This document shows positions 10,570 to 35,989 of a stretch of DNA of 38,734 nt, piece after piece. The first letter of the stretch is position 1; each line of letters starts with the position of its first letter. This DNA is from Deltaproteobacteria bacterium. GTDB taxonomy: Bacteria > Desulfobacterota > Desulfobacteria > Desulfobacterales > JAABPS01. Under the pieces are notes generated by a model that was not told where the DNA came from, made no database searches, and saw only the letters and a list, made by a program, of their open reading frames with translations. The stretch is from contig JAFDFT010000002.1 in assembly GCA_019309685.1 (NCBI GenBank), positions 1-38,734 on the forward strand. Reading direction: 5' to 3'. The position numbers and the translations under genes were made by a program.

Positions 10570-10971
10570 ATGGTTTTCATAATTTACAAACCTTCAACAA
10601 ACAATTCGAATAAGCTTCAGCGTAAGATTGAGCCACTTGTTTCTAAAACGCAAGTGGAAAATTATAGTTCAATTAAAGATATTACGCAAAGACTTCAACG
10701 TCCAATGAAAGAAGAAGTGGTAGGGATTTTTATGCCTTCAAGTGAAAAAGATCTTTCGGACCTGCTGTCAATTAATCACCTGGTAAAAGACATTCGAATT
10801 ATTCTTGTGCTCCCGGACAGGGACGAAAAAACAATATCCATTGGGCATTCTTTAAGGCCGCGGTTTTTGACATATGCTGATGGCGACTTAAGTGATGTCG
10901 CAGCGGTGATGATCAAAATGATGGGCAATTCGAGGGAAGAACAAAATCAAAGAGGTGAGGTGTATGCTTAA
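10570..10971 (+). CDS. Hypothetical protein, possible degenerate (pseudo-)receiver fold
   Basis: 133-aa ORF with SD AGGAGA upstream. Hydrophobic strands alternate with amphipathic segments (MVFIIY.., VVGIFMP.., IRIILVLPD.., RFLTYAD..) as in a flavodoxin/REC fold, but there is no acidic pocket or acceptor Asp. The stop overlaps the next start (ATGCTTAA). Confidence 0.5.
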   Translation: MVFIIYKPSTNNSNKLQRKIEPLVSKTQVENYSSIKDITQRLQRPMKEEVVGIFMPSSEKDLSDLLSINHLVKDIRIILVLPDRDEKTISIGHSLRPRFLTYADGDLSDVAAVMIKMMGNSREEQNQRGEVYA

Positions 10972-12697
10972 CGGAATTAATAACGATCCACCTGCTAAAA
11001 AAACCGTACTGATTGTTGATGATGAGGAGGCAATCCGAAGCACTGTGGAAGAGGCGCTCGAAGAATATAAAGATTGGATAAGCGTTTTAACTGCTGAAAA
11101 CGGCAAGCAGGCAATCGAACACCTGAACGCGGCGAAAGTAGATCTTGTACTTACCGACTTAAAGATGCCTGAAATGGACGGATTCGAGCTTCTTGCATAC
11201 ATCAGCAGGTATTTTAACAATCTGGCGGTTCTTGTTATGACGGGATTCGGCTCATCAGCGATCACCACACGTCTTGAACATATGGGTGTTCCAAATTATT
11301 TGAATAAGCCCATTAACTTAAACACGCTAGTTGATAGAATCCGGGTTGGGCTTGAAGACAGTTCAAAGGGTTATCTGAACGGTTTTTCACTCGCGAACTT
11401 TCTCCAGGCCGTTGAGGTTGAACAAAAGACAATGTCGATAATGGCCAACTCAAAAGGTCAGGTCGGATATTTACACATTGTCGAAGGCGAGCTGATAAAC
11501 GCGGAAACGGAGGACCTGAAGGGAGAGGCGGCGGCAGTGGAAATCATCAGCTGGGAAGACGCCGAGATTAAGATCGTAAATCTGCGAAGTGAGGATAAAA
11601 AGATTGATACGCCGTTAATGAACATATTGTTGGAAGCATCAAGGAGTGAAGATGAGAGAGGCCAGTCTACCTCAAGTGAGGATTCTCTGTTAAATGAAGC
11701 AATCCAAAAAGCTGAGGCGCATCATTTCTCGGAGGCAAAGGAGCTGCTGGCCAGGGTTGTATCAGAAAATCCTCGTAACCACAAGGGATGGTTGTGGTAT
11801 GCGCGAGTGCTTGGAAGTATGAAAGCGATTGAAACATCGCTAAATAACGCGGCTAAAGTTTCACCTCAGAATACAGAGGTCATTGAAGAAATCAATAAGT
11901 TTAATCTGGCAAAAAGGAAAATTAAAAATGGATCTATTCTACGATGCCCGTTTTGCTGGTTTCTGTTAGATGCGAAAATAATTAATTGTTTGTCATGCGG
12001 GTCGTTTTTAACCGTAAGCGAAACTTTTCTTGCCTGTACAAAGCATGCAGATAAAGCAATTTTAAAATCTGCGATTGAGAGGTACCAGAGAGTTTTAGAA
12101 AGTGATTCAAATAATTTTAGCGCGCAGTATAATCTTGGTCTCGCATATATCAACCAGGAGATGTGGGATGAAGGTGTCAACCATCTTTCAAGCGCGGTAA
12201 ACTTGTCTCCTGAAAATAAATTTCTTTCCGAACAACTCAATTATTTGCTTAAATATATTGCTTCAGGTGATCCGTTTGTATCGAAACGAAAAGGCAATGC
12301 AGCTGATAGCAAAGGGGGGAAAACGGCCAATAAAGAAAAGACGGTTCTTGTTGTAGAAGACAGCTCAACCACTCGAGCAGTTGTTAAGACAACATTGGGC
12401 CAAATGGGATACAGGGTGGTTGAGGCGGTTGATGGACTTGAGGCACTAAGCAAGCTAAGTGCAGTAAAACCAGACCTGATCCTGCTGGATATTATTTTGC
12501 CTAAAATGGATGGTTATCAAATACTGGCGGCAATAAAGAAAAAGCAGGCATTAAAAGATATCCCTGTGATCATGCTTACTGCAAAAGACAAAATGATGGA
12601 TAAGGTAAAAGGGAAACTGGCGGGGTCAAATGAATATCTCACAAAACCTTTTGATCCTAATGAATTATTAGATATTGCGGTGAAATATCTTCAATAA
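10964..12697 (+). CDS. Multidomain response regulator: REC - PATAN/DUF4388 - TPR - CxxC..CxxC zinc ribbon - TPR - PilG/PatA-like REC
   Basis: N-terminal REC (LIVDDEE...LVLTDLKMPEMDG...NKP). DUF4388 signature (GYLNGFSLANFLQAVEVEQKTMSI...GYLHIVEGELINAE...GEAAAVEIISWEDAEIKI). TPR-like repeats. CPFC-X10-CLSC at 11945-11998. C-terminal REC (LVVEDS...LLDIILPKMDG...LTAKDKMMDKVKGKLAGSNEYLTKPF). I prefer ATG 10964 (SD GAGGTGAGG); the track start is GTG 10955. Confidence 0.8.
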   Translation: MLNGINNDPPAKKTVLIVDDEEAIRSTVEEALEEYKDWISVLTAENGKQAIEHLNAAKVDLVLTDLKMPEMDGFELLAYISRYFNNLAVLVMTGFGSSAITTRLEHMGVPNYLNKPINLNTLVDRIRVGLEDSSKGYLNGFSLANFLQAVEVEQKTMSIMANSKGQVGYLHIVEGELINAETEDLKGEAAAVEIISWEDAEIKIVNLRSEDKKIDTPLMNILLEASRSEDERGQSTSSEDSLLNEAIQKAEAHHFSEAKELLARVVSENPRNHKGWLWYARVLGSMKAIETSLNNAAKVSPQNTEVIEEINKFNLAKRKIKNGSILRCPFCWFLLDAKIINCLSCGSFLTVSETFLACTKHADKAILKSAIERYQRVLESDSNNFSAQYNLGLAYINQEMWDEGVNHLSSAVNLSPENKFLSEQLNYLLKYIASGDPFVSKRKGNAADSKGGKTANKEKTVLVVEDSSTTRAVVKTTLGQMGYRVVEAVDGLEALSKLSAVKPDLILLDIILPKMDGYQILAAIKKKQALKDIPVIMLTAKDKMMDKVKGKLAGSNEYLTKPFDPNELLDIAVKYLQ

Positions 12698-12752
12698 TTA
12701 TTTTGCTTGTATAGGAAAATAGAAATTAAATAAAAATACTATGGGAGGAACA

Positions 12753-13118
12753 ATGGCAAAAGAAAAGATTATGGTCGTGGATGATAGCCCAACTGAATTA
12801 AAAATTATGACGGAACCGTTTATTCCAAAAGGCTATGATGTTATTACGGCAATGGATGGAGAGGAAGCGATTAAGATGGCGGAAGAAGAGAAGCCAGACC
12901 TTATTGTGCTGGATGTAATTATGCCAAAGATGAACGGGTTTCAGGTATGCCGTAAAATTAAAACAACACCAGAACTAAAAGATATAAAGATTCTTCTGCT
13001 GACAAGCAAAAATCAGGAAAGTGATGAGTTTTGGGGAATGAAACAGGGCGCTGACGCTTATATGACAAAGCCATTTAAAGGTGATGAGCTGTTGGCAAAG
13101 GCTGAAAGTCTTTTGTAA
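12753..13118 (+). CDS. Single-domain CheY-like response regulator (PilH-like)
   Basis: MVVDDSPTE...LIVLDVIMPKMNG...LLTSKNQESDEFWGMKQGADAYMTKPF. SD GGAGG lies 4 nt before ATG 12753; the track start 12741 is less likely. Confidence 0.85.
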   Translation: MAKEKIMVVDDSPTELKIMTEPFIPKGYDVITAMDGEEAIKMAEEEKPDLIVLDVIMPKMNGFQVCRKIKTTPELKDIKILLLTSKNQESDEFWGMKQGADAYMTKPFKGDELLAKAESLL

Positions 13119-13205: not shown

Positions 13206-13844
13206 ATGCAAGAATCAGTTGAAGAGAATGAAAAGGATCAATCTGCAGCACAAAAAACCAGCTCTAAATCAGACCTGATGGATCTGGTAAATAGAATTGA
13301 GGGAGAAATTGAACGGCGAACGAAGCCTGAAAATACGGAAGCCTTAGAAGACATTGGTGCAATTGAATCAACCGTATTTGCCGAAAAGCAGTATATTAAA
13401 TTTATTCTGGCAGATATTTCCATGGCAGTTTCGATTACCAGCGCATTAGAAATTGGCCGCATGCCTGAAGTAACACCTTTGCCAAATCTTCCGGAGTGGA
13501 TTCTCGGTATCAGTAATGTGCGTGGTGAAATTGTGTCGATCGTTGACCCCAAAGGCTTTTTTGGCTGGCCCTTGAAAATAAAAATTAGAGAACCGCATTT
13601 TATTATCGTACACAACAATGAAATGAAGGTAGGGTTATTGGTGGACAGAATTGCGGGGATTGTATCTCTGGATGAGACAGATACAGATATTAAAGACGAG
13701 CCAATAGACAAAACGGAATTAGAGATAAAATTGGAGCCCTATATTTCCGATGTGTCAATTTCTGAAGAGAAACCACTGTATGTGGTTGATGTAGATAAGC
13801 TGCTGTCAGATCCGCGAATGAAGAGGGAAGCTGAAAATGCGTAA
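13206..13844 (+). CDS. CheW-like coupling protein with ~60-aa acidic N-terminal extension
   Basis: CheW domain pattern (YIKFILADISMAVSITSALEIGRMPEVTPLPNLPEWILGISNVRGEIVSIVD...VGLLVDRIAGIVSL). Confidence 0.8.
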   Translation: MQESVEENEKDQSAAQKTSSKSDLMDLVNRIEGEIERRTKPENTEALEDIGAIESTVFAEKQYIKFILADISMAVSITSALEIGRMPEVTPLPNLPEWILGISNVRGEIVSIVDPKGFFGWPLKIKIREPHFIIVHNNEMKVGLLVDRIAGIVSLDETDTDIKDEPIDKTELEIKLEPYISDVSISEEKPLYVVDVDKLLSDPRMKREAENA

Positions 13845-13966: not shown

Positions 13967-16849
13967 ATGCCGCCTATTGATGATACAGTCAAAGGATTTA
14001 TTGAAGAAGTAAAAGGCTATATTGATCCGATAAAAGAAGGAATTCAATCCTTTCATGAGAATGCTAATAAATGGGATGCCCTTGAAGAAACCCATCGGCT
14101 TGTTCACACGATAAAGGGAGCGTCATCATTGTTAGATTTTATAGGGTTAAGTCATATTGCCGGGGAGATGGAAAATGCGCTGAATGATGTGTTTTCGGGA
14201 GAAATCACCATTTCTGAGGGCGTTGTAAACACTCTGCTGCATACAGTTGGACAAATCGATACTTACTGTGAAGAAATTGTTACAGGTGAAGTGGATGATA
14301 AAGCAATGGTGATGGAAGCGGTATCCGTTTATAGGCGCTTGCGTGATTTGCCTGAAGAAGGAGATGAAGAGGCATTTACTATTGTGTGGGAGTCAGAACC
14401 CGGTTTGGAGACAGGTTCAATTTCAGACATTGAAGGTAGATCCGGTGAAGCGGATGACTTGTTTAGTGATTTAATCAAAAGTTTTTACGATGAAGCAGAA
14501 GAGCACATGGAAAACACAGCGCGTTTTCTAAACATCCTTGATTCTCAGGTGTCTGAACGTACCGAAATTACGCCTTCACAACGGGATGCAATTAAAGAAA
14601 TCCGGCGATCCGTTCATACGGTCAAAGGTGCCGCAGGAATGGTTAAGCTGACCGAAATATCAAGATGGGCGCATGAAATAGAAGATGTGCTTGACTGGTT
14701 GTATGAGGAAGCCAAGGAAATTGACAGGCCCTTAGTAGAACTGCTGTATGACGCGACAGATTTGCTAGGGATATTTATCATAAACCCACTACAGGTTGAT
14801 AATGATAGACTAGATACGATACGTCAAAAATTTAGAGAAATATTAGGTGCTGATTTTTCCGGGCAGACTGAAAGCAATGACGGACAGGCATCAGAAGTTG
14901 AAACGGTTATCAGCGAAAAAAAAGAAACAGTAGAAATCTTTGAACCAGGTCCTGAAAAGATAAATTTAGAAGAACAGGTTCAAGCGGCGACTGATGTCGG
15001 CTATGGAAAGACCCTTAGAGTCCAGATGGAAAAGGTTGACGATCTTGTAAACCTGGGGGGAGAGCTCAGCATCGCTTTAAGTGGGTGTGAGCAGAAAATG
15101 GAAACATTTACCACTTCATTAAGCGAGCTTGAACTTTCCCGTGACAGACTAAGAGCGATCGCGCGTGATCTCGAAACAGACTATGAGGTGAAAGCGATTC
15201 AGGGATTGGGGACTACATTATCCTCAGCGATAGCGGGTGACGGGAGTGTGCTTCCAACAGGTGTTTTTGAAGAATTTGATTCACTGGAATTGGACCGCTA
15301 TTCGGAATTTAATCTTATGATCCGATCTCTTGCTGAAGCAGTCGTCGATATGGGTACGATTAACACTCAGATGCTGAGTATTTACAGTGAACTCGATGGG
15401 TTTTTAAATAGACAGAGAGTGCTTCTTAGCGAATTGCAGAACAATATGATGCTTATTCGAATGACGCCGATGTCAAGTATATCAAACAGAATGCGCCAGA
15501 CAGTCAGAGAAATGGCACGGGACCTTGGAAGGCAGGTAAAGCTAATTATTGAAGGAGAGGAAATAGAGCTCGATAGACAGATTTGGGATAGGATTACAGA
15601 TCCGTTAATGCATATTCTCCGAAATTCTGTTGACCATGGGATTGAAAGCCAGGACTTGCGCCAGGAGTTAGGCAAACCGACCTTTGGAACGATAAAAGTT
15701 TGGGCTGCCAGACAAGGGAACCAGGTTGTCATAAGGATAGCGGATGACGGTACAGGATTAGATTGTGAGATGATCAGAGAGAAAGTACGCGCGTCAGGCG
15801 TTCAAGATAACATTGACCAGATGTCAGATGAAGAACTGGCATTAATAGTTTTTCAGCCTGGCTTCACTACCAGTGAACAGGTCACTCAGTTTTCCGGCCG
15901 TGGTGTGGGGCTCGATGTCGTAAAAGAAAACATAGAAAGTCTAAAGGGATCTGTATCTGTCCATTCGGTTAAAGATCAAGGGGTTCAATTTACGATTCGA
16001 ATTCCCTTGACATTAGCAGTGGCTGAAGCACTTTTGTTCAGGATGGATACCCAGCAGTATGCTGTTTCGTTAAATGATGTGAACGAAATTTTCAGGTTTG
16101 GTCCCGGAAGTATTCCTGATGAGATGGAAGGGGAGTTGGAGATTGAGGGTGAAGTTTATCCGCTGTTTAATTTGAGAAAAATGTTAAATACTGATCAAGC
16201 TGCCGGCGATTCATCCAAAGCAGTGGATGATAAAATTGTACTTTTACTTGAGACCAGCGGTAAGCGGGTTGCGGTTTCCATAGAAAATATGATCGGAAAA
16301 AGAGAGATCGTTATCAAGAGTTTAGGTTCTCACCTTAAACAGGTCAAAGGTGTTTCCGGTGCAACCATACTTGGTGACGGGAGTGTGGTGCCGATTTTAA
16401 ATATCGAGGAGCTTATTGGTGGTGGAGCGATTATTACCGAGGGCGGTGAAGATGATTTTAGGCCCATAATCGGCAAGCAACTTGAAATACTGATCGTGGA
16501 CGATTCGGTCAGTGTAAGGCAGGTGGTTGCTAGGCTTATGGAAAATCAAGGATGGAAAACGAAAACCGCCAAGGATGGTGTTGAGGCATTAGAAAGAATA
16601 AGGGAAAGCAAGCCTGACCTGATTGTGCTTGATATCGAGATGCCAAGAATGAATGGATATGAGTTTTTAAACGCGATGAACGTTCAGTCACGCTTTAAAA
16701 ACACTCCTGTTGTTATGCTTACATCCAGAGCAACTTCAAAGCATCGTGAGAAGGCGATGAGCCTTGGTGCAAGAGGTTTTGTTGTAAAACCGTATAAAGA
16801 TGATGAGTTTATCGATATTGTAATGAGATTGACAGGTGTAAGTAGTTAA
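13967..16849 (+). CDS. cheA: Hybrid CheA histidine kinase: Hpt-Hpt-dimerisation-HATPase-CheW-REC
   Basis: Two Hpt motifs (HRLVHTIKGASSLL and RRSVHTVKGAAGMV), N-box ILRNSVDHGIE, G1 DDGTGLD, G2 GRGVGLDVV, a P5 CheW-like domain, and a C-terminal REC (ILIVDDS...LIVLDIEMPRMNG...VVKPY). Confidence 0.9.
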   Translation: MPPIDDTVKGFIEEVKGYIDPIKEGIQSFHENANKWDALEETHRLVHTIKGASSLLDFIGLSHIAGEMENALNDVFSGEITISEGVVNTLLHTVGQIDTYCEEIVTGEVDDKAMVMEAVSVYRRLRDLPEEGDEEAFTIVWESEPGLETGSISDIEGRSGEADDLFSDLIKSFYDEAEEHMENTARFLNILDSQVSERTEITPSQRDAIKEIRRSVHTVKGAAGMVKLTEISRWAHEIEDVLDWLYEEAKEIDRPLVELLYDATDLLGIFIINPLQVDNDRLDTIRQKFREILGADFSGQTESNDGQASEVETVISEKKETVEIFEPGPEKINLEEQVQAATDVGYGKTLRVQMEKVDDLVNLGGELSIALSGCEQKMETFTTSLSELELSRDRLRAIARDLETDYEVKAIQGLGTTLSSAIAGDGSVLPTGVFEEFDSLELDRYSEFNLMIRSLAEAVVDMGTINTQMLSIYSELDGFLNRQRVLLSELQNNMMLIRMTPMSSISNRMRQTVREMARDLGRQVKLIIEGEEIELDRQIWDRITDPLMHILRNSVDHGIESQDLRQELGKPTFGTIKVWAARQGNQVVIRIADDGTGLDCEMIREKVRASGVQDNIDQMSDEELALIVFQPGFTTSEQVTQFSGRGVGLDVVKENIESLKGSVSVHSVKDQGVQFTIRIPLTLAVAEALLFRMDTQQYAVSLNDVNEIFRFGPGSIPDEMEGELEIEGEVYPLFNLRKMLNTDQAAGDSSKAVDDKIVLLLETSGKRVAVSIENMIGKREIVIKSLGSHLKQVKGVSGATILGDGSVVPILNIEELIGGGAIITEGGEDDFRPIIGKQLEILIVDDSVSVRQVVARLMENQGWKTKTAKDGVEALERIRESKPDLIVLDIEMPRMNGYEFLNAMNVQSRFKNTPVVMLTSRATSKHREKAMSLGARGFVVKPYKDDEFIDIVMRLTGVSS

Positions 16850-16909: not shown

Positions 16910-17347
16910 ATGCAACAACTGATTTTATTTAAAGTGTATGACACTCTTTTTGCAATAGACCAGAAATTTGTAAAAAAGAAGTACCAAAAAGAGGAGCTTT
17001 TTAGTGAGCGTGCAAGTAAAGCAAAGAAAGTAAAGATCAAACTGGATGGAACTGACGTCCCACTTTACGATTTGCCGGCTATGTTCGGCGGATTCGCTGA
17101 TGAAACAAGGAAAGGCAATGGTGAAGCCATGCTGGTAAAAGATGAAGAGGGTCACATGGTTTTTCTTGCACATCAAATTGAAGGGGCCGTTGAAATTGAA
17201 AATGAGTTTATTAAAGACCTTTCACCGGTTTTTGGAAAGCGTTCGTGTACGTATTTTCCAAAGGTTACTATAAAAGATAATCTGCCTGTTTTGATTTTAA
17301 ATCCATCAGGCATAAGAGCGGATGCGAATAGTGAATCAGCTATCTAA
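16910..17347 (+). CDS. Divergent CheW-like protein
   Basis: 145-aa ORF starting with the CheW-type pattern LILFKVYDTLFAIDQKFV...DVPLYDLPAMFG...MVFLAHQIEGAVEIE. Similarity is weak and motif-based. Confidence 0.5.
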   Translation: MQQLILFKVYDTLFAIDQKFVKKKYQKEELFSERASKAKKVKIKLDGTDVPLYDLPAMFGGFADETRKGNGEAMLVKDEEGHMVFLAHQIEGAVEIENEFIKDLSPVFGKRSCTYFPKVTIKDNLPVLILNPSGIRADANSESAI

Positions 17348-17377: not shown

Positions 17378-17881
17378 GTGAAAAAACAGAGTCAAGAAGA
17401 AGTCGTTGACCATAAGGTGTTAATATGTTCGGCAACGACGCCATACGTTGACGGGAAGCAAATTTATTTTCTTTTCAGCCTTTACCAGGTTGAAGATATT
17501 CAGAGAGAATTATCCGTTTATGATGTCCCGTTTTCAGCGCCGTTTATTGAAGGAATTACCGTGTGGCGTGACTTGACAATTCCTGTGATTTCACTGGAGC
17601 GATACCTTGGATTGCCGCTCGCTGAAGCGGGCCAAAGCCAACGATTTATTGTTATACGGTCTGCGCTGGGAACACAAGAAGATGTGGGGGAAATGCGAAT
17701 CGCAATTCGAACGGAAAGGGAAACTAAAATGATTTCCATTCCAGATTCGAATGAGTTGGTTACATCCAATGGGTGGATGAATCATGAACTCGTAAAAGGT
17801 GTCTTTGAGTGGGATAAAGGTTACATAGTGGTTCCTGAAACAGATAAATTGTTTCAAGGAGAAATCAGTTATAAAGGCTAA
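17378..17881 (+). CDS. Divergent CheW-like protein
   Basis: 167-aa ORF (GTG start) with YFLFSLYQVEDIQ...PFIEGITVWRDLTIPVISLERYLGL...RFIVIR, which resembles a CheW domain. Confidence 0.5.
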   Translation: MKKQSQEEVVDHKVLICSATTPYVDGKQIYFLFSLYQVEDIQRELSVYDVPFSAPFIEGITVWRDLTIPVISLERYLGLPLAEAGQSQRFIVIRSALGTQEDVGEMRIAIRTERETKMISIPDSNELVTSNGWMNHELVKGVFEWDKGYIVVPETDKLFQGEISYKG

Positions 17882-17916: not shown

Positions 17917-19326
17917 ATGTCTGACACAGAAGTAAATAATAAAGGAAAGCAAAAAACCATGGGGCAGCCAGCAAACGTGACCGAGTTCGAAAGCTTAAAA
18001 ACGGACAATGGGAATACAGATACATCCGGTCATGAAAACAGGTATCAAAAGACCGTACTCGAAAACGGCATACGGGTCGTAACAGCAAGTATGCCGGGCG
18101 TAAGGTCGGTTTCAATGGGCGTATTAATCAATGCGGGTCCCAGGGATGAAAGCCCGGAAGAATGCGGTCTGGCACACCTGATAGAACATGCTATGTTCCA
18201 AAGCACGAGCAGTAAAAACGCGACGCAAATTGCCAGTATCATGGATACTGCGGGAGGACAGATGGGCGCTTTTACTGCCAGGGATTATACATGCTATACG
18301 GCTACGGTGCTGGACGATTACCGTACGTATGCACTGGAACTTTTAAGTGATCTTTTGCTTAATTCAATTTATCCGGAAGAGAACATGGAAAGAGAAAAAG
18401 GCGTGATCATGCGTGAGATAGATGCCTCGAATGATCTGCCTTCTAAGAAAGTACACTCGATCTTAAAGGAATCCATCTGGGCTGATCATGCCCTTGGACG
18501 TCCGATTTTTGGATGGCCTGAGACAGTTAAGCCGTTAACGCGTGAAGACGTCATTTATTTTGTACATAAACATTACCTGCCGAATCGGATGATCGTCTCT
18601 GCAGCCGGAAATCTTGAGCATAGTGATTTTGTGGCGCAAGTAAGAGATTTCTTCTGGAGCCTGATGGGTGAAAGCATTCCTACGGATAATGGTCCGCCAT
18701 CGTATACGGCTGGGGTTACCATTGAGCATGCATCTGTTTCCCAGGCTTATTTTTCGTTAGGTATTAGGGCTTTTCCGTATGCGCATCCGGACCGCTATGG
18801 TTTTCATTTGCTCAATGCCATACTCGGCGGCGGAATTAGCTCAAGGCTTTATCGGCGGATGCGCGAAGAAAGAGGGCTGGTGTATGAAATAAGTTCGCAA
18901 TATCATGCGTATGAAGATGACGGTGTGCTAGTTATTGAAGGGAGTACCAAGCCGGAATATCTCATGCAGGTTTTAGGGTTAACCCTTGTCGAATTGTGGA
19001 GGCTCATTACGTTAGACGAGCCTGCAGATGAAGAAGAGTTATGGAAGGCGAAAATGCAAATCAGAGGGCAGCACATCATCTCAGGCGAGATTACCAGTAC
19101 ACGAATGAGTCAGCTTGCGACACAGGAGCAGTATTTTGGAAGATATATTCCAGCAGAAGAAATTATAGGGGAAATAGATGCGGTGGATAACCGTATGCTC
19201 GAAAGGATGGCACGTGAGTCTTTAATCAAATTTTTAAAACAAACGGCAATCGCCATTGTCGGCCCGAAAGCCCCTGAATATTATAGCGTTTCATCTATTG
19301 AAGACTTATTAAAAAGTTTTCAATAA
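17917..19326 (+). CDS. M16-family zinc peptidase (pitrilysin/insulinase-like), paralog 1, inside the chemosensory block
   Basis: HxxEH zinc motif (GLAHLIEHAMFQ) with a downstream EREKGVIMREI Glu motif. It has two-lobe M16B length and a ~40-aa polar N-terminal extension absent from the paralog at 34697. Confidence 0.85.
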   Translation: MSDTEVNNKGKQKTMGQPANVTEFESLKTDNGNTDTSGHENRYQKTVLENGIRVVTASMPGVRSVSMGVLINAGPRDESPEECGLAHLIEHAMFQSTSSKNATQIASIMDTAGGQMGAFTARDYTCYTATVLDDYRTYALELLSDLLLNSIYPEENMEREKGVIMREIDASNDLPSKKVHSILKESIWADHALGRPIFGWPETVKPLTREDVIYFVHKHYLPNRMIVSAAGNLEHSDFVAQVRDFFWSLMGESIPTDNGPPSYTAGVTIEHASVSQAYFSLGIRAFPYAHPDRYGFHLLNAILGGGISSRLYRRMREERGLVYEISSQYHAYEDDGVLVIEGSTKPEYLMQVLGLTLVELWRLITLDEPADEEELWKAKMQIRGQHIISGEITSTRMSQLATQEQYFGRYIPAEEIIGEIDAVDNRMLERMARESLIKFLKQTAIAIVGPKAPEYYSVSSIEDLLKSFQ

Positions 19327-19357
19327 ATTTTTCAAAAAATAAGAAAAGGAGGATGTT

Positions 19358-19513
19358 ATGGCAGTAGACCCTGTAGTAAAGAAAAACTGGATAGAGATTC
19401 AAAGGCAGCACAATGTTCCAGTGAACGCAATCGGGGTAAAGATTGATCCCAAGGATGAAAAAACCCTGAACATCTGGAAAGAAGAAGGGATTGATGAGTT
19501 TGTGAAGAAGTAA
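19358..19513 (+). CDS. Small conserved protein (51 aa), tandem paralog 1, family not recognised
   Basis: AGGAGG (19347-19352) lies 5 nt before the ATG. Product: MAVDPVVKKNWIEIQRQHNVPVNAIGVKIDPKDEKTLNIWKEEGIDEFVKK. It is 36/51 identical to the next ORF, with 14 synonymous codon differences. It is below the ORF-track length cutoff. Confidence 0.75.
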   Translation: MAVDPVVKKNWIEIQRQHNVPVNAIGVKIDPKDEKTLNIWKEEGIDEFVKK

Positions 19514-19599
19514 GCCAACAATGATGGTTGCGTTGGCATGTCAAGGGAAAGAAGTTAAATTGTTAAGCGTAAGCAGTTACTTTAACTAGGAGGTAAGTC

Positions 19600-19755
19600 A
19601 TGGCAGTAGATCCTGCAGTAAAAAAGAACTGGATCGAAATCCAAAAGAAGTATGACGCGCCGGTAAACGCCATTGGGGTAAAGATTGCTTCCAAGGATGA
19701 AAAAACGCTGAAGGTATGGCGAGAGGAAGGAATTGTCCAGTTTTTGAAAGAATAA
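19600..19755 (+). CDS. Small conserved protein (51 aa), tandem paralog 2
   Basis: AGGAGG (19588-19593) lies 6 nt before the ATG. Product: MAVDPAVKKNWIEIQKKYDAPVNAIGVKIASKDEKTLKVWREEGIVQFLKE. Length and stop position are the same as paralog 1. Confidence 0.75.
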   Translation: MAVDPAVKKNWIEIQKKYDAPVNAIGVKIASKDEKTLKVWREEGIVQFLKE

Positions 19756-20043
19756 TCTTTCGTCGGTTCATACCTCGTTGCAACATGCTTGTATTCCAAT
19801 AAACTTTGGAATGCATAAAATCCCGGCATTTTGGGATGAAAACCGATAAATGCTTGGATTTGCATCAAATTAGTACCTGTCTGAAGTTTTTAGAATGGGT
19901 CAGATTTGATGGATGGTGGAGTATGCTCAAATTATGCCCAATCATTTTGTCCCTGAAATTAATTATTATTACAACATGTTGGACATGTTTTCAATATATT
20001 AGAATAAACATATAAGAAGTGAAATAACAAGGAGGTTAACGAT

Positions 20044-22551
20044 ATGAAACTAAAACTAGAATTCCTTAACAAGTTTCTTGACAAGCTTAAGGGATGGAAA
20101 CCCTCTCTAGCAATTTTTAGTAGTATTCGAAATAAATTGCTGGTTTCATTGATTGCGCTGGTTATGATCCCTTTAATTGCGAGTATTTTTCTGGGAACCA
20201 ACCTGTCAAGAAGTCTGTTAATGGAGAAATCATTTGATAACCTGGAGGCTGTAAGAACCATTAAATCGAATCAGGTTAGAGCATGGTTTAATGAACAACG
20301 ATCTGATGCACGAGTGCTCTCCGCAAGTCCGGTAGTTATAGAAGCTGCAGATGCATTCCATGAAGCTGTTAGCAAGCTGCAACCCAAAGAGACGACTCGA
20401 AAAGGCGGGCATGAAAAAGGACTCGAGCCGATTCAAAAGCTTTATAAAGGAAAATCAGTTGTAGACAGAGGTGATGGGAGTGACTACAGCAAGGCTCACG
20501 CAACTTGGCACCCTGTGTTTAGGCGGTTTGTTCGGGAAAACGGTTACAGTGACTTGTATTTAGTCGACCAGGACGGTGATGTTTTGTATTCTGTGGCAAA
20601 AGAGGACTTTTTTGGCGTCAACATTTTGTCCAGGAAATACAATTCAACCAATATATTTAAATTGTTTCTGGCATTAAGGGCAAAAGATGCAAAACAGGAT
20701 ACCACAATTATTTCAGACTTTGACTTTTTAGGGGATTCAAAAACGCCTTCAGCTTACATCGCATCGCCTATTACCTCAAGACCCACTGGCGGGAAAGTCA
20801 TCGGTGTACTGGTGTTGCGCGTTTCCAATGATAAAATTGCTACAGTTATGGGTGAGCGGTCAGGCTTGGGGCAAACGGGTGAAACATATCTGGTGGGCCA
20901 GGACAACCTGTTTAGATCTGAGTCACGATTTACGGGGGCGTTAAAGGTTGAATCAGCTGTTTTAAATCCAATTTCACCCGTTAATACGGAAGCAACGAAA
21001 AGCGCCCTGGAAGGTGCTACAGATACAAAGGTTATCAATGATTATCTTGGAAAACAGGTGTTGAGTTCCTGGGCTCCTCTGCTTATTCAGAAACCGACAA
21101 GTAATAATCCTGATGGTATTAAATGGGCCTTTGTATCCCAGATTGGCCTGGATGAAGTACAGGCGCCAATTGTTACGGCGCTTAAATTTGCGGCAGCCTT
21201 GTTTGTCATCATATCAATTATAGCGATTGTTATCGCTGTTGCGCTGTCTGGCGGTCTGACCGGGCAGGTCCGGCGGATTATGGATCTTTTCGGGGAAATC
21301 GGTCTTGGTAATTTCGAGGCGCGCGGGCAGGTTCTTAGTAGAGATGAGCTGGGTGTCATGACAAGTTCACTCAATACTTTGCTCGATAATATTCTGCCGC
21401 TTCTTCAAACACGTGAAGAACGCGATTCGATGCAGGAATCGGTTATGAGATTAATGGACGAAGTTAGTGGTTTGGCGGAAGGTGACTTGACCGTTCGCGC
21501 AGAGGTGTCAGCTGATATTACAGGAGCGATCGCGGACGGCTTTAACGCCATGGCGGAGCAGCTCAGTGTCGTTGTTCGGGATGTTAAGGAAGCGACATTG
21601 AAATTGAGCAATACAACATCTGAAGTTAGAGATAATGCGGAAAATATGGTTGAAAAAAGCGAGGAACAGGCTGTTAAGGTTTCAGACGCGATGGCGTCAG
21701 TAGGCGAATTGGTTTCATCTGCTCAATTGGTTGCGGATAATGCGACCCAGTCTGCGGCTGTCTCGAATCAATCTACTGAAAATGCGAGGGAAGGCGCGAA
21801 GGCGGTTGAGGATACCAATAAGGCGATGGAGTCCATACGGGATAATGTGCAGGAAACAGCGCGGGCAATTAAGCGTCTTGGGGAAAGCTCCCAGGAGATC
21901 GGAAACATCGTCCAAATCATCGACGATATCTCTGAGCGTACATCAATCCTTGCATTGAATGCTTCCATTCAGGCGGCAATGGCCGGTGACGCGGGAAGGG
22001 GCTTTGCTGTGGTTGCTGAAGAGGTTCAGCGTCTTGCCGAACGTTCAACAAGTTCCGCAAAGCAGATTGATACGCTTGTTAAAAATATCCAGGATGAAAT
22101 CAACGAAGCAGGAACAAGTATGGAAGAGAGTATCCAACGAGTTGTTGATGGGTCAAGGCTGGCCGGGGATGCTCACAAGAAACTCCAGGAAATTGAAAAT
22201 GTTGCGGAAAACCTTTCGGGACTGATTCAGTCAATTTCAAATGTTGCCGAGGAGCAGGCAGCGGTTTCTGAGAGCATCGCGACGGCCATGGGAGAAGTTG
22301 GTGAAATCAGTTCGGATACGGCCCAGGCAACACAGACAACTTCCTTTGCGATGAAAGAACTTACCAAAATATCTGATGAGTTGCGTGAGTCTGTTGAGAT
22401 ATTTAAGGTTGAGGAAGCGGATGCTGAAGTGGAGAAAGAGGAAGCTAAGATATCAGAAGAGAAGGACGTGGACGCAGCGGAATCAGGCGACATGGCTGAT
22501 GAAATTATCGAAGTGGATGCGGGTGTGGAAGAATATAAGCAGAGCGCTTAA
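20044..22551 (+). CDS. Methyl-accepting chemotaxis protein: TM - Cache3/Cache2-type periplasmic sensor - TM - HAMP - PilJ-like signalling domain
   Basis: SD AAGGAGG. TM1 is [19 protein letters not shown]. Cache-type motif ([40 protein letters not shown]...GETYLVG). TM2 is [18 protein letters not shown]. Hairpin tip is [38 protein letters not shown]. The tail is acidic and lacks an NWETF-type pentapeptide. Confidence 0.9.
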
Positions 22552-22612: not shown

Positions 22613-23176
22613 ATGAAAAAATTAACGATTATATTGATGGCCTGTGCATTTTTAGCCGCGGGCTCCATGACAGCATATGGCGGGGAACAGGCTCCGGCCA
22701 AGGTGAAAAGCTTTGCGCATAACGTTCTGGCCAAGTTCGGTTCTGACTCAGTAATTGTTAACGCAGTTAAAGCCGAGAATGCCAAAAAAAAGACACTTGA
22801 GAAAGTCAAAGAAATAGACCAGAAATGGATCAACACCATTGGTACTGACGACTTTATCGACTCACTAATGAATTCAGCATGTTCTCAGCATCTTAATAAT
22901 ATCAAAAAGGAAAACGATTTTTATGAAGAGATATTTGTAGTGGACAATCTGGGTGCAAATGTAGCTCTGACAGATAAGACATCTGATTACTGGCAGGGAG
23001 ATGAGGCCAAGTTTACAAAGAGTTATAAAGAAGGGGCTGGAGATGTTTTTATCAGTGATGTCAGTTTCGATGACAGCACCCAATCCTATTTGACTCAAGT
23101 ATCGGTGCCGGTTATGGGTGAGGGCAAGGTAATAGGTGTCATAATCTTTGGAATTAATGTTGATAAGTTAAATTAG
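22613..23176 (+). CDS. Secreted/periplasmic single Cache (PDC-fold) domain protein
   Basis: Signal peptide MKKLTIILMACAFLAAGSMTAYG. Cache-like body (EEIFVVDNLGANVALTDKTSDYWQGDEAKF...YLTQVSVPVMGEGKVIGVIIFGINVDKL). SD AAGGAGG. Confidence 0.7.
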   Translation: MKKLTIILMACAFLAAGSMTAYGGEQAPAKVKSFAHNVLAKFGSDSVIVNAVKAENAKKKTLEKVKEIDQKWINTIGTDDFIDSLMNSACSQHLNNIKKENDFYEEIFVVDNLGANVALTDKTSDYWQGDEAKFTKSYKEGAGDVFISDVSFDDSTQSYLTQVSVPVMGEGKVIGVIIFGINVDKLN

Positions 23177-23292
23177 GATAGTTGGTAATGAGATTCGTTG
23201 AGTCACCGTTTTTGAATAAGATTTGAGTAAATCATTGGGCAAAAGTATATGGTGTTAAATGCTTCGGAAAAGGCTCAATAAAATCATCATGA

Positions 23293-23601
23293 ATGACTCA
23301 TAGATCTGTTTCAGCAAATGCTTTTATTGATCCGATCAGCGTGTTCAAGATAATACAGGATTTTTACCTTTTGAACAACAGAGGTGATGTTCTTGGAGCA
23401 TACTACACGGAGAACATAACGGAGACGTCACTGAATATGCGAGAAAATGTGCCCCATTTAACCGATTTTCATGCGGGTATGTGGGAAGGAATCGTCAGAA
23501 TGTATACGGACAAATATATCTTCAAAGGTGTTGAGGTGCTGAAAAGAAAAGAGGAGGGAGAACCTTATTCCGTATATCTTGTTAGCTATCAGAAAAGATA
23601 A
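23293..23601 (+). CDS. Hypothetical protein (possible V4R/DUF2378-like half-domain)
   Basis: 102-aa ORF with no clear SD. The C-terminal HAGMWEGIVRMYTDKYIFKGVEV...YSVYLVSY resembles the C-terminal half of V4R/DUF2378-type ligand-binding folds. This is a weak call. Confidence 0.35.
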   Translation: MTHRSVSANAFIDPISVFKIIQDFYLLNNRGDVLGAYYTENITETSLNMRENVPHLTDFHAGMWEGIVRMYTDKYIFKGVEVLKRKEEGEPYSVYLVSYQKR

Positions 23602-23613
23602 TATCAGATTATC

Positions 23614-24162
23614 GTGAGACATGTAAAAGGATCTATGTTCATAGAAATTGTAAAAGGAATTAAATCCGATAAAAGCGGCGCTTACGACAATTTGCTTACA
23701 GAAGAAGATAAAAACCTACTTTCCAAGACTATTCTCTTAGGAAGTTGGTATCCGTATGATGTTTATAAAAGATGCTTTAATGCCCTTGCACAAGTAATTG
23801 CAAAGGGCGACATGGAGATTTGTAAACAATGGGGTCATGCACAAGGTGAAGGAATGATAAAAAGCGTTTACAAATCCGTGTTAAAGGAAAAAAATTATAA
23901 AACCGCTATGGAAAAGTTCATATCATTGTTCAAGCTAATGTATGACTTTGGTGAACTCTCTGTAAGTTTTATTTCAGATAATGAAATGGAAGTCGCGTAT
24001 AAAGATTTTGACCCGGATTTCCAGGTTTCCTATATTGTCGCCCAAGGATGGGTGGAGAAAATCCTCGAAATATGCGGATGTAAAGATGTAAAATCGAAAT
24101 TTCTGGTAAAATCCTGGGAAGGAGCCGGAGCTACAGCGCTACATTTTTCGTGGACGTCATGA
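23614..24162 (+). CDS. DUF2378 (TIGR02265-like)/H-NOX-V4R-like protein
   Basis: 182 aa, N-terminal VKGSMFIEIVKGIK, mid SWYPYDVYKRCFNALAQVI, C-terminal ...GATALHFSW. The overall pattern recalls the Myxococcus TIGR02265 family. This is recalled from memory, not searched. Confidence 0.45.
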   Translation: MRHVKGSMFIEIVKGIKSDKSGAYDNLLTEEDKNLLSKTILLGSWYPYDVYKRCFNALAQVIAKGDMEICKQWGHAQGEGMIKSVYKSVLKEKNYKTAMEKFISLFKLMYDFGELSVSFISDNEMEVAYKDFDPDFQVSYIVAQGWVEKILEICGCKDVKSKFLVKSWEGAGATALHFSWTS

Positions 24163-32399: not shown

Positions 32400-32619
32400 A
32401 CATTCCGGAGATTGTTCATTTTTATACAGCTTTAGCTGTTATGGCATGGCCCGCTTTTTTAGCCGGCATGTATTAGACCGGCATAGCTTTAAGAGTCTTC
32501 TTATAATTTTAAGCGGGAATTTTGCATTTATTGTAATTTGTTAGAAAAAAGTGATTTCTTCATTATAAGAATATCATTTGAAATAGTATATTTTTATGGA
32601 AGAAAATCAGGAGAGACAT

Positions 32620-34704
32620 ATGGAAAATTCATTTAATACTGAAATTAACGGCAAAACACTGACCATTGAAACTGGAAAACTTGCCAAGCAGGCATCAGGC
32701 TCTGTGGTGGTTCAATATGGCGAAACGATTGTACTTGTAACAGTGGTTTCATCAAATCAGGAGACCAAGCAGGATTTTTTACCGCTGACGGTTGAGTATC
32801 AGGAGAAAATTTATGCGGCAGGAAGAATCCCGGGAAACTATTTCCGGCGTGAAATAGGGAGGCCCAGCGAGAAGGAGACTTTAACTGCGCGCCTGATTGA
32901 TCGGCCCATACGGCCGCTATTTCCGAAAGGATATCGATATGAGACACAGGTGATTGCAACGGTATTATCAATGGACCAGGAAAATGATCCCGACTTTCTT
33001 GCGATGATTGGTGCTTCAGCCGCTCTTGAGATATCTGATATTCCTTTTGAGGGACCCATCGCATGTGCACGTGTGGGTCGGATTGATGGCCAGTATGTCA
33101 TTAACCCAACCATCAGTGAATGTGACTCCTCAGATATTAATATATTTGTTGTGGGTTCGAAAACAGGTATCGTCATGGTAGAAGGAGGCGGCGATGTTGT
33201 CAGCGAATCGGATGTTCTGGAAGCGATCTTTTTTGCCCATGAAGCTATTCAGCCGATAATTGATATGCAAGTAAGGCTTAAGGAAGCTTTTGGTGTACCG
33301 AAACGCCCTTATGATCCACCCGTTAAAGATGATGCACTGGTTCAAATCGTTGAATCCAAAGCCTACGATCCGCTGTGTGATGCGATCATCACACCGGGAA
33401 AGATGGAGAGACAACGAGCCGTTCGTGAAGTAAAGTCCAAAATATTTGAAGAGCTTGGAGATGACTTCGCTGAAAGAAAGGATGAAGTCTATGATATATT
33501 TGACGATGTAAAAAGAAAAATTTCACGGGATCTAGTTTTGAAAAAAGGCCGGCGTATTGATAACAGGAAATTTGATGAGGTTCGTCACATATCATGCCAG
33601 CCGGGGATTTTGCCGCGGCCTCATGGCTCAGCGCTTTTTACACGTGGAGAGACTCAGGTATTAGGTGTTTTAACACTGGGCTCGGGAAGAGATGAGCAGC
33701 GCGTGGAAACCCTAAGCGGTGAAGTGTTCAGACCGTTTATGCTTCATTATAACTTCCCGCCCTTTTCTGTTGGAGAAGTAAAGCGGCTCGGCGGGCCCAG
33801 CCGAAGAGATGTCGGACACGGTGGGCTGTCCACACGAGCGCTTGAAAAGGTACTTCCTGCAAAAGAAGAATTTGATTATACCATCCGTCTTGTATCAGAA
33901 GTGTTGGAATCGAATGGTTCTTCGTCTATGGGAACCGTCTGCTCAGGCACGATGGCTCTCATGGACGGTGGCGTGCCCATTAAAGCCCCGGTGTCAGGTA
34001 TTGCCATGGGATTGGTAAAGGAAGGAGACCAGATTGTTATTTTGTCAGACATCCTGGGAGACGAGGATCACACAGGTGATATGGACTTTAAGGTGGCCGG
34101 TACAAAAGATGGAATTACAGCGCTTCAGATGGATATCAAAATTCTTGAACTGTCAAAAGATATAATGGGAAAGGCGCTTGAGCAGGCGCGCGTGGGACGC
34201 TTACATATCCTCGATAAAATGCTGGACTCCATAGATGTGCCCCGAGAAGAGATTTCTCCCTATGCGCCGAAGATCATTACCATCAAAATTAATCCCGATA
34301 AAATACGTGATATCATCGGGCCTGGCGGAAAAGTGATCCGGGCCATACAGGCAGAAACAAACACGCAAATTGAAATCGATGATTCAGGCGCTGTGAAAAT
34401 TGCAGCGGTCTCTACCCAGGAAGCGGAAGAGGCGTTAAGGATGATTAATGAAATTACTGCTGAGCCAGAAGTGGGAGAAGTGTATGAAGGAACCGTCGTG
34501 AAAATAACCGATTTTGGCGCATTTGTTCAGATACTTCCCGGTACGGATGGACTTGTTCATATCTCTCAACTGGCGCCTCAGCGTGTGAAAAAGGTTTCCG
34601 ATGTCGTTAAAGAAGGAGAAATTATAAAGGTGAAAGTACTTGAAGTCGGGCGGGATGGGAAGATAAGGCTCAGCCGTAAAGCGGTGCTAGAACAAGATGG
34701 ATGA
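32620..34704 (+). CDS. pnp: Polyribonucleotide nucleotidyltransferase (PNPase)
   Basis: Two RNase PH domains, a KH domain and an S1 domain ([33 protein letters not shown]). I prefer ATG 32620 (SD AGGAGA 6 nt upstream) over the track start at 32596. Confidence 0.95.
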
Positions 34705-35989
34705 AAATCTAATAAATAATACAGCACTTAAAAATGGTATTCGGATTTTGAGCAAGCAGATACCCAATGTGCGCTCTGTTTCAATGGGTGTGTGGGTGGA
34801 TGTTGGCGCCCGTGATGAATCTCTGGAAGAAAACGGTCTATCCCATTTGATTGAACACATGATTTTTAAGGGGACAAAGCGGCGGAATGCGTTTCAGATC
34901 GCGAAAGAATTTGATGCCATCGGCGGGCATAGCAACGCCTTTACTTCCATGGAAAACACATGCTTTCACGCGAAGGTTCTTGATTCGCATACCCATACCA
35001 TGATCGATATCCTTTCTGATATTTTTTTAAATTCGGTATTTGACGAGACAGAAATTGAAAAAGAACGGCCGGTAATACTGCAGGAAATCGGGATGGTTGA
35101 AGATAGTCCTGACGAATATATCCATGTCCTTTCCGGAAATGCATATTGGGGAGATAATCCGCTTGGGCGTTCCATCTTGGGGAGCCGTGAAAATATTGTA
35201 AGCTTTGGACCAGAGGCAGTGAAAAGTTTTTTCAACCGTTTTTACCGACCGGATCGAATCGTTATTTCAGCAGCTGGAAATATTGATCATGCCTGGTTCG
35301 TGGATAAACTAGAGGCGCCCTTTAAAGCTGTGGAGCAAAATACAGAGCAATTTGAACGTGTTACACCAGAAGGGCTTTCAACCGTTGACCTTCACCATAG
35401 AGAACTCGAACTGGCGCATATCTGTATTGGGACAAGGGGGCTGTCTATAACAGATCCGCGCCGTTATGAGTTTTCATTATTAAGCACTATTTTGGGCGGC
35501 AACATGAGTTCACGTTTATTTCAGGAGATACGTGAGCGAAGGGGGCTTGCCTATTCAGTTTATTCTTTTGTAAACTCTTATTTCGACACAGGCATGTTCG
35601 GTGTATATGCGGGTGTTGATCACGCCCGTGCGACCGAATGCATTGATGTGACAATAAAAGAACTACGCAAAATGAGTTCACAGCGCGTAACCACATCCGA
35701 GCTTACCAATGCAAAGGAACACACAAAAGGTAATTTACTCCTGTCCGCTGAAAGTGTGGACAACCATATGGTACGATTGGCGCAAACAGACATCCATTTT
35801 GGACGTTACATCCCAATTCAGGAGGTTATAGAAAAAATTGAAGCCGTAACAACGGATGATATTCTCGCTGTAGCCGAAAGCCTTTTCCAGTCAGAAGACT
35901 ACGCTCTAACAATCCTGGGCCCTGTTGATAATAAAAGTGACTATGAAAATCTCCACTTCGTGAAAAATTCAGGTATCAACCCAGTTTAG
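34697..35989 (+). CDS. M16-family zinc peptidase, paralog 2 (housekeeping, pnp-linked)
   Basis: HxxEH motif ([13 protein letters not shown]) with [11 protein letters not shown]. The start overlaps the pnp stop (ATGGATGA). pnp-M16-dut is a recurrent synteny. Confidence 0.85.

Follow-up and report, generated by a model that had tools for sequence, protein, structure and literature searches.

Two tandem 51-codon genes beside an M16 peptidase gene belong to a chemosensory-linked protein family

The stretch of DNA analyzed here (the window) comprises 38,734 nucleotides (nt) of contig JAFDFT010000002.1 from a Deltaproteobacteria bacterium (GCA_019309685.1), and coordinates are positions in it unless another locus is named. 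Between the genes of an M16 metallopeptidase and of a methyl-accepting chemotaxis protein (MCP), two tandem genes each encode a protein of 51 residues, referred to below as the mini-protein. That these are real genes of a chemosensory-linked family is close to certain. The family appears to be a dedicated accessory component of operons of the PATAN or type IV pilus (Tfp) type, similar to Pil-Chp, in which it forms a fixed pair with an M16B peptidase. The mini-protein may act as a small regulator of the pathway and be turned over by this peptidase.

Two coding genes under purifying selection

Copy 1 (19358-19513, + strand) and copy 2 (19600-19755, + strand) start with ATG, end with TAA, and encode MAVDPVVKKNWIEIQRQHNVPVNAIGVKIDPKDEKTLNIWKEEGIDEFVKK and MAVDPAVKKNWIEIQKKYDAPVNAIGVKIASKDEKTLKVWREEGIVQFLKE, respectively. 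A Shine-Dalgarno sequence AGGAGG is found on the same strand upstream of each, at 19347-19352 with a spacer of 5 nt to the ATG of copy 1, and at 19588-19593 with a spacer of 6 nt to that of copy 2. The tandem arrangement, the equal length, the equivalent stops and the Shine-Dalgarno sites had all been pointed out in an earlier examination of the window without database searches, the sequence-only reading, and are found as described. The same reading took the two genes to have been missed by the list of open reading frames (ORFs) at its disposal. They are absent from that list, but only as an effect of its length cut-off: both are reported once the minimum is set to 30 residues, and homologs are present in public gene calls as 51-residue hypothetical proteins.

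The two proteins are identical at 36 of 51 positions, with 44 positives out of 50 and E = 4e-27 in a BLASTP comparison. When the sense codons are compared, 22 are identical, as is the stop, 14 show synonymous differences only and 15 specify another residue, which reproduces the earlier counts. The nucleotide differences are distributed 9/6/21 over codon positions 1/2/3. The non-synonymous (dN) and synonymous (dS) divergences calculated by the NG86 method are 0.138 and 1.74, giving a dN/dS ratio of 0.08.

With copy 1 as a query, 467 database homologs were retrieved at E ≤ 0.01. Among the 120 that were listed, 110 have exactly 51 residues, and all are either named 'hypothetical' or not named. 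A set of 121 loci was assembled, 26 of them from species-representative genomes and 80 from metagenomes, with several more obtained by exact look-up. It contains about 130 family genes, in all of which the frame is open; 109 of the 125 complete genes have exactly 51 codons, and GGAGG-like ribosome-binding sites precede nearly all homologs.

The pattern of divergence was examined in 34 homologous genes. None contains a stop in the sense frame, the mean amino acid identity is 0.70, the mean nucleotide divergence at codon positions 1/2/3 is 0.25/0.15/0.60, and the median dN/dS of the 28 pairs with unsaturated dS is 0.10. On the opposite strand, the frame of the two listed ORFs (19356-19544 and 19598-19816) is interrupted by stops in 31 of the 34 genes, and its mean amino acid identity is only 0.30. 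Coordinate arithmetic places the third positions of the sense codons on the second positions of these antisense ORFs; the geometry and the greater divergence of the antisense translations had both been noted previously. Frame conservation, codon-position divergence, dN/dS and the broken antisense frame together indicate that 19358-19513 and 19600-19755 are real protein-coding paralogs under strong purifying selection. The sequence-only reading had proposed this from the comparison of the two copies, and the evidence for it is now much stronger than that comparison could provide.

Non-coding explanations were considered. A structured RNA instead of genes was rejected, as the only match to Rfam in the region (E ≤ 1) was to CRISPR-DR11, below threshold and inside the MCP gene. 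Chance ORFs, or a non-coding repeat, would have nothing but the small size of the genes to commend them; they are refuted by the homologs, the conserved frame and the dN/dS values, as well as by the lack of an Rfam family in the region, and are given practically no credence.

Conservation of the gene neighborhood

The context of the loci was inspected within flanks of 5-10 kb. By tblastn with the window proteins, the gene just before the small gene was identified as an M16 ortholog in 24 of the 28 genome loci; among those metagenome loci that include upstream DNA, the count is 68 of 72. Most often 27-45 nt separate the two genes, which overlap by 10 nt in two loci. On the downstream side, a gene for CheY, for a PATAN protein with a receiver domain (REC), or for an MCP follows in all but one of the loci having downstream DNA; the small gene stands directly before CheY or PATAN-REC in 54 out of 80 loci.

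Two architectures were distinguished. Architecture A, that of the window and, among the genome loci, of bins labelled Desulfobacterales, has the order CheA-REC, CheW, CheW, M16, small gene, CheY, MCP. Architecture B, of the Chloroflexota/Acidobacteriota type, has the order M16, small gene, PATAN/TPR-REC, CheY, CheW, MCP, CheR, CheA-REC, CheB, CheW. In locus L027, which belongs to architecture B and follows the pilGHIJK-chpABC order, two small genes come after M16 and precede TPR-REC. The M16-small gene pair is kept while the surrounding gene order is reshuffled, and the linkage to M16 and chemosensory (che) genes exceeds 90% across both architectures.

The association was also approached from the peptidase. 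Three M16 homologs, one of them from Desulfoluna sp., were picked without reference to the small gene because they lie on long contigs or belong to a named cultured genus, and all three have a 51-residue gene directly downstream. One of these loci has two copies of it, and genes for PATAN, CheW, CheA-REC and MCP proteins are also present.

According to the labels of the bins, for which some caution is due in the case of metagenome-assembled genomes, the carriers include Desulfobacteraceae/Desulfobacterales, Desulfatitalea, Syntrophobacterales, Anaerolineales, Caldilineaceae, Chloroflexia, Chloroheliaceae, Acidobacteria/Solibacteraceae, Acanthopleuribacteraceae, Planctomycetota/Pirellulaceae and one 'Clostridia' bin. 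At least five bacterial phyla are represented, and the phylum labels include Desulfobacterota, Chloroflexota, Acidobacteriota and Planctomycetota. The median identity to the window protein is 72.5% for the small protein, 59% for M16, 59% for CheY, 42% for CheA and 28-37% for the CheWs. By these values the small protein is the best conserved of the cluster, in a comparison biased upward since most loci were found through it.

Judged by gene order, the 51-residue core clade is tightly tied to M16 and che genes, and its members do not occur in random contexts. The sequence-only reading had suggested a functional link from the position of the pair between the M16 and MCP genes. This suggestion is now backed by very strong synteny across phyla, seen both from the small protein and from the peptidase.

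Some loci depart from this pattern. Small genes of the core clade are found in che clusters without an adjacent M16 gene in L013, L019, L026, L102 and L103, and in L016 an orphan copy adjoins genes for an aconitase and a Uma2-family protein. Divergent members were recognized with E = 1e-5 to 1e-11 against the family profile. One of them, the 52-residue P0161 (L032, 8001-8159 of JAANSX013008566.1, GCA_024449895.1), lies in a run of small genes; its neighbors are Bro-N, HNH/RRXRR, Volactin and dNMP-kinase genes, a phage-like setting with neither M16 nor che genes nearby. In L034 a divergent member stands alone upstream of rpoD. In L029 it forms the N-terminus of a 445-residue protein, a membrane protein to judge by its sequence, on a Bacteroidota-like contig, and still other members are joined to an Smr or an FHA domain.

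These phage-like, rpoD-adjacent and fused contexts, together with the orphan copy in L016, would suit a generic small housekeeping or mobile domain that has no particular part in chemosensing and hitch-hikes with a laterally spreading operon, and the cross-phylum identities of 60-76% of the whole cluster do suggest lateral transfer. Nevertheless, mere hitch-hiking is very unlikely given the linkage to M16 and che genes over two architectures and the retention of the pair despite reshuffling.

In L118 (12983-15380), a gene for a ParA/MinD-type ATPase lies beside CheW, along with a hemerythrin gene; the arrangement is reminiscent of ParC/PpfA array positioning.

The mini-protein family and its predicted fold

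A profile search of 1.84 billion cluster representatives returned only 83 clusters (50% identity), nearly all of 45-70 residues, which indicates a narrow, compact family rather than a fragment of a larger domain. In the core clade, M1, N10, W11, Q15, P21, N23, A24, I25, G26, D33, T36, W40, E43, G44 and I45 are invariant. With 13 further near-invariant columns, these 15 positions are distributed across residues 1-48, so that conservation is uniform along the chain. When the most divergent members are included, only M1, W11, Q15 and V22 are still invariant, Q15 being the sole polar residue among them.

AlphaFold2 yielded the same small helical model from a close and from a diverse alignment, with a predicted local distance difference test (pLDDT) score of 89.7 and 88.4, respectively. 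It consists of a helix (residues 5-16), an extended loop bearing the PVNAIGVKI segment, a second helix (34-42) and a short helix (45-48). The mini-protein has no hydrophobic segment and a net charge of about zero, with nine Lys or Arg against nine Asp or Glu; nor does it contain Cys, a GG motif or a signal peptide, in accordance with the initial description.

That the sequence-only reading recognized no family is in line with the searches: neither copy matches a model of Pfam-A (E ≤ 10), NCBIfam or PHROG. Foldseek found no similar fold, the best hits having E = 4.5 in the PDB and 3.3 in BFVD, a database of viral structures. No profile match was obtained to CheZ, CheC/CheX, CheD, CheV, Sda or Spo0E in Pfam (E ≤ 10) or NCBIfam, and the motifs D-x3-Q and E-x2-N are not visible in the family alignments. 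When the hidden Markov models of the family were compared with all window proteins, only the two small genes matched, which gives no sign that the mini-protein mimics a protein of the cluster.

Two apparent similarities were rejected. A PDB profile search pointed to WD40 proteins with E-values down to 1e-12, which came from a 14-residue motif (DxKTxKxW..G) summed over 8-14 repeats; a single repeat contributes 3-4 bits (E = 300-800), and AlphaFold2 models the segment as a helix. A helix-turn-helix DNA-binding protein of the excisionase or MerR kind was discarded for lack of a Pfam match and for the neutral charge, the Lrp DNA-binding domain having a Foldseek probability of 0.07. Two metagenomic members, P0141 and P0146 (111 and 126 residues), have long Pro/Ala-rich C-terminal tails with a common YYRG end.

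Small tandem genes beside a receptor with a periplasmic Cache domain might also encode precursors of pheromones, or of ribosomally synthesized and post-translationally modified peptides, matured by the M16 enzyme and sensed by the dCache receptor. M16 peptidases are known to mature pyrroloquinoline quinone (PQQ) and subtilosin-type peptides. The sequences do not have the corresponding features: conservation is uniform over the 51 residues instead of being split between leader and core, a globular fold is predicted with confidence, and Cys and GG motifs are missing. Neither the window nor any of five annotated loci encodes a modifying enzyme or an exporter, and neither the small protein nor the peptidase shows a signal peptide in its sequence, both being probably cytoplasmic. 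This proposal was thus rejected as highly improbable.

The M16 peptidase

The gene at 17917-19326 (+ strand) encodes an M16B, or insulinase/pitrilysin-type, metallopeptidase with the zinc motif HLIEH. Peptidase_M16 (E = 2.5e-30) and Peptidase_M16_C (E = 2.9e-31) are both recognized above their gathering scores in a single chain. The HxxEH motif is intact in all 24 orthologs adjoining a small gene, and the enzyme is predicted from it to be catalytically competent.

The ATG at 17917 has no Shine-Dalgarno sequence. A second in-frame ATG, at 17959, comes after AAAGGAAAG, which includes the motif GGAAAG, and close homologs have 455 residues, as expected for a start there. The true start is therefore probably 17959, the annotated one being 42 nt too early.

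The peptidase falls below the cut-off of every named NCBIfam equivalog, and its 1196 homologs at E ≤ 1e-30 are named only 'pitrilysin/insulinase family'. The window encodes a second M16 peptidase of 430 residues (34697-35989, + strand) after pnp (32596-34704), a common housekeeping arrangement. The presence of this second enzyme shows that the che-linked M16 is a separate, dedicated paralog. Members of the che-linked clade are 43-66% identical to each other across phyla and 35% identical to the housekeeping M16.

Possible function of the pair

The reading that is tentatively favored is that of a cytoplasmic mini-regulator of a PATAN/Tfp-type chemosensory pathway, with the M16 enzyme as its dedicated protease; in its complete mechanistic form, it is given slightly less than an even chance of being correct. 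The mini-protein would be a small modulator that binds one of the signaling components, which may be a receiver domain, the receptor array or the hybrid CheA. The type IV pilus motor is the target of PATAN response regulators, for instance PixG (PMC12288463). The co-encoded peptidase would set the level or lifetime of the mini-protein, its enclosed chamber being suited to polypeptides of about 51 residues, while the strong Shine-Dalgarno sites and, in the window, the second copy would drive high synthesis against turnover. Members of the M16 family, among them IDE, PreP and pitrilysin, take up polypeptides of up to about 70 residues in their chamber and cleave them. The mini-protein appears to be cytoplasmic, no signal peptide being apparent in its sequence, and a role beyond that of a substrate is indicated by those che clusters that have kept the small gene with no M16 gene next to it.

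Several observations weigh against this reading. The functional link is drawn from genetic linkage, which does not separate a substrate from a partner or from a protein with a parallel function. About 6% of the core-clade loci have no adjacent M16 gene. Divergent family members are found outside chemosensory contexts, and the elementary activity of the fold may accordingly be broader than chemosensing. A protein mainly destined for degradation would not usually be so uniformly and highly conserved from end to end. Finally, tandem pairs of small genes are found in only 9 of the 121 loci, and this minority state weakens arguments from dosage.

The whole-surface conservation would be as expected for a fully buried partner. 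The mini-protein may be a stoichiometric subunit of the M16 enzyme that is not cleaved, acting as a plug, a gate or a specificity factor, the pair being directed at, for example, the chemoreceptor, CheW or a response regulator. The tight pairing, the short gaps and the occasional overlap suggest translational coupling, and the small gene accompanies all three sampled members of the M16 clade; in the bc1 complex, the M16-like core proteins are known to keep a small peptide in their cavity. Against a subunit stand the survival of the small gene in che clusters where M16 is not adjacent and the divergent members with no M16 nearby, as well as the strong Shine-Dalgarno site of its own and the occasional duplication, which argue for synthesis in excess over the enzyme. 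On balance, this role is rather unlikely.

The frequent position of the small gene directly before CheY or PATAN-REC, and the invariance of Q15 as the only polar residue conserved in the most divergent members, direct attention to phosphotransfer. In this case the mini-protein would act alone, either as a CheA inhibitor in the manner of Sda or, through Gln15, as an accelerator of dephosphorylation in the manner of CheZ, Spo0E or CheS, and the linkage to M16 would have another cause. CheZ, CheX and CheC are not seen in the window cluster, and Sda and Spo0E are likewise small helical proteins. On the other hand, no sequence or fold match to these families was found, the invariant Gln may be merely structural, and the near-obligate pairing with M16 would be left unexplained. 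An independent action on phosphotransfer is considered unlikely.

The favored reading, that of a mini-regulator degraded by its own protease, can be extended to a proteolytically timed regulator, which would either inhibit CheA or promote dephosphorylation of PATAN/CheY receivers via Gln15 and would make up, with the peptidase, an accessory module of a novel type. Its half-life, set by the peptidase, would provide a reset or memory for pilus-type taxis, an adaptation layer distinct from CheR/CheB methylation; lateral transfer would have carried it through Desulfobacterota, Chloroflexota, Acidobacteriota and Planctomycetota. In this extended form the proposal is speculative and doubtful.

Relation to known systems

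The chemosensory operon of the window resembles the Pil-Chp system of Pseudomonas aeruginosa and the cyanobacterial Tax/Pix system (PixGHIJL), as it encodes a PATAN-REC protein like PilG/PixG, a CheY like PilH/PixH, CheW, an MCP and a hybrid CheA-REC with multiple Hpt domains; the likeness extends in L027 to the full pilGHIJK-chpABC order. It differs from them by its rearranged cluster, in which no CheR or CheB was seen. The Pil-Chp and Tax/Pix model systems are not known to include an M16 peptidase or a 51-residue protein, and literature searches gave no hit for either.

Sda of Bacillus subtilis is a helical inhibitor of KinA of 46 residues that is rapidly degraded by ClpXP. As a tiny, helical, cytoplasmic modulator of a kinase pathway whose function requires fast proteolysis, it serves as the working analogy for the favored reading. 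The mini-protein has no sequence or fold similarity to Sda, whose family is included in Pfam, and the protease is a general AAA+ enzyme in one case and a dedicated, co-encoded M16 peptidase, as proposed here, in the other.

CheZ, CheX/CheC, CheS and Spo0E are also small helical accessory proteins of signaling operons. Several of them use an invariant Gln or Asp borne by a helix, and the mini-protein has the invariant Gln15 in helix 1. It differs from them in that it has no profile match and neither of the D-x3-Q and E-x2-N motifs.

Pairs made of an HxxEH-type M16 protein and a polypeptide of about 50 residues that fits the chamber are exemplified by IDE and insulin, PreP and presequences, PqqF and PqqA, and the bc1 core proteins and subunit 9. 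In contrast to these clients, the putative client here is strongly conserved, apparently folded, cytoplasmic and encoded beside the enzyme in a chemosensory operon.

Neither the mini-protein nor an M16 peptidase within a chemosensory operon is covered by a curated family or a solved structure, or by any paper that could be retrieved. While the surrounding system is of a known kind, the module made of the peptidase and the mini-protein is undescribed, as far as the searched resources show. Few signaling systems of bacteria have been studied as thoroughly as chemosensory pathways. Accessory proteins such as CheZ, CheC/X/D, CheV and CheS explain much of the diversity of chemosensory pathways. The insulinase-type peptidase and the 51-residue protein are a candidate new accessory pair, with hundreds of carriers among the environmental genomes of several phyla. 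If the functional link is true, pilus-type chemosensory systems would be controlled at one level by regulated proteolysis of the mini-protein, and the family would, in addition, clearly exemplify the small proteins hidden by length cut-offs.

Duplication and hairpins

The duplication in the window is old, as indicated by the dS of about 1.7 between the copies. Locus L115, which has about 95% nucleotide identity to the window, retains both copies in the same order. Duplicate copies of different lineages are roughly equidistant from each other and from singletons, which suggests several independent duplications. Compared to its ortholog in L115, copy 2 of the window has the changes D30A, D46V and E47Q, and position 46 is Asp in 111 of 112 aligned 51-mers. 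Copy 2 may be drifting under relaxed constraint, or specializing, in this lineage.

A hairpin is predicted directly after the stop of copy 1 (GCCAAC...GTTGGC, 19514-19537, + strand), with a z-score of only -0.6 for the segment. It is found in L115 as ACCAAC...GTTGGT, which amounts to one compensatory change from G-C to A-U. Downstream of copy 2, a hairpin of 10 bp (19790-19815, + strand) lies in a 108-nt segment with a folding energy of -30.5 kcal/mol and z = -3.3, and its stem ATTCCAA/TTGGAAT is preserved in L115. Neither hairpin has a U tract, and a scan for the terminator consensus found none on the + strand. The two elements could be processing or stabilizing elements, or weak attenuators, before the gap of 288 nt to the MCP gene.

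Other genes of the window

The chemosensory cluster is inserted between two groups of genes, namely pheST-merR with a sigma-54 response regulator gene and rimP-nusA-infB. Its genes, assigned by domain searches, are all on the + strand. The first encodes a response regulator of 580 residues similar to PilG/PixG (10955-12697), with the domains REC-PATAN(DUF4388)-TPR-REC, an ortholog of which is labelled PatA_N. It is followed by a single-domain CheY-like response regulator (12741-13118) and a CheW-like coupling protein (13206-13844). The hybrid CheA, similar to ChpA (13967-16849), comprises two Hpt stretches, H-kinase_dim, HATPase_c, CheW and a C-terminal REC; its orthologs have a faint match to FimL_C. 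Two further CheW-like genes (16910-17347 and 17378-17881) precede the M16 gene, and the chemoreceptor gene downstream of the small genes (20044-22551) encodes a dCache-HAMP-MCP signaling domain protein. Neither CheR and CheB nor CheZ and CheC/X were seen in the window cluster. The build of the hybrid CheA, in which several Hpt domains are combined with a receiver at the C-terminus, points to a system of the Tfp class; the PATAN-REC protein and the second CheY-like regulator are present, but in an order rearranged relative to pilGHIJK-chpABC.

After the MCP gene, an ORF of 187 residues (22613-23176, + strand) encodes a stand-alone Cache-like protein, and two ORFs of 102 and 182 residues (23293-23601 and 23614-24162, + strand) have no family match. 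The possibility that 22613-24162 is the remnant of a degraded second MCP gene found no support in tblastn searches and was discarded. At the other end of the cluster, an ORF of 133 residues (10570-10971, + strand) without a match in Pfam or NCBIfam overlaps the start of the PATAN regulator gene. It is also called as a gene of 133 residues at the same position in L115, and may be another uncharacterized member of the cluster.

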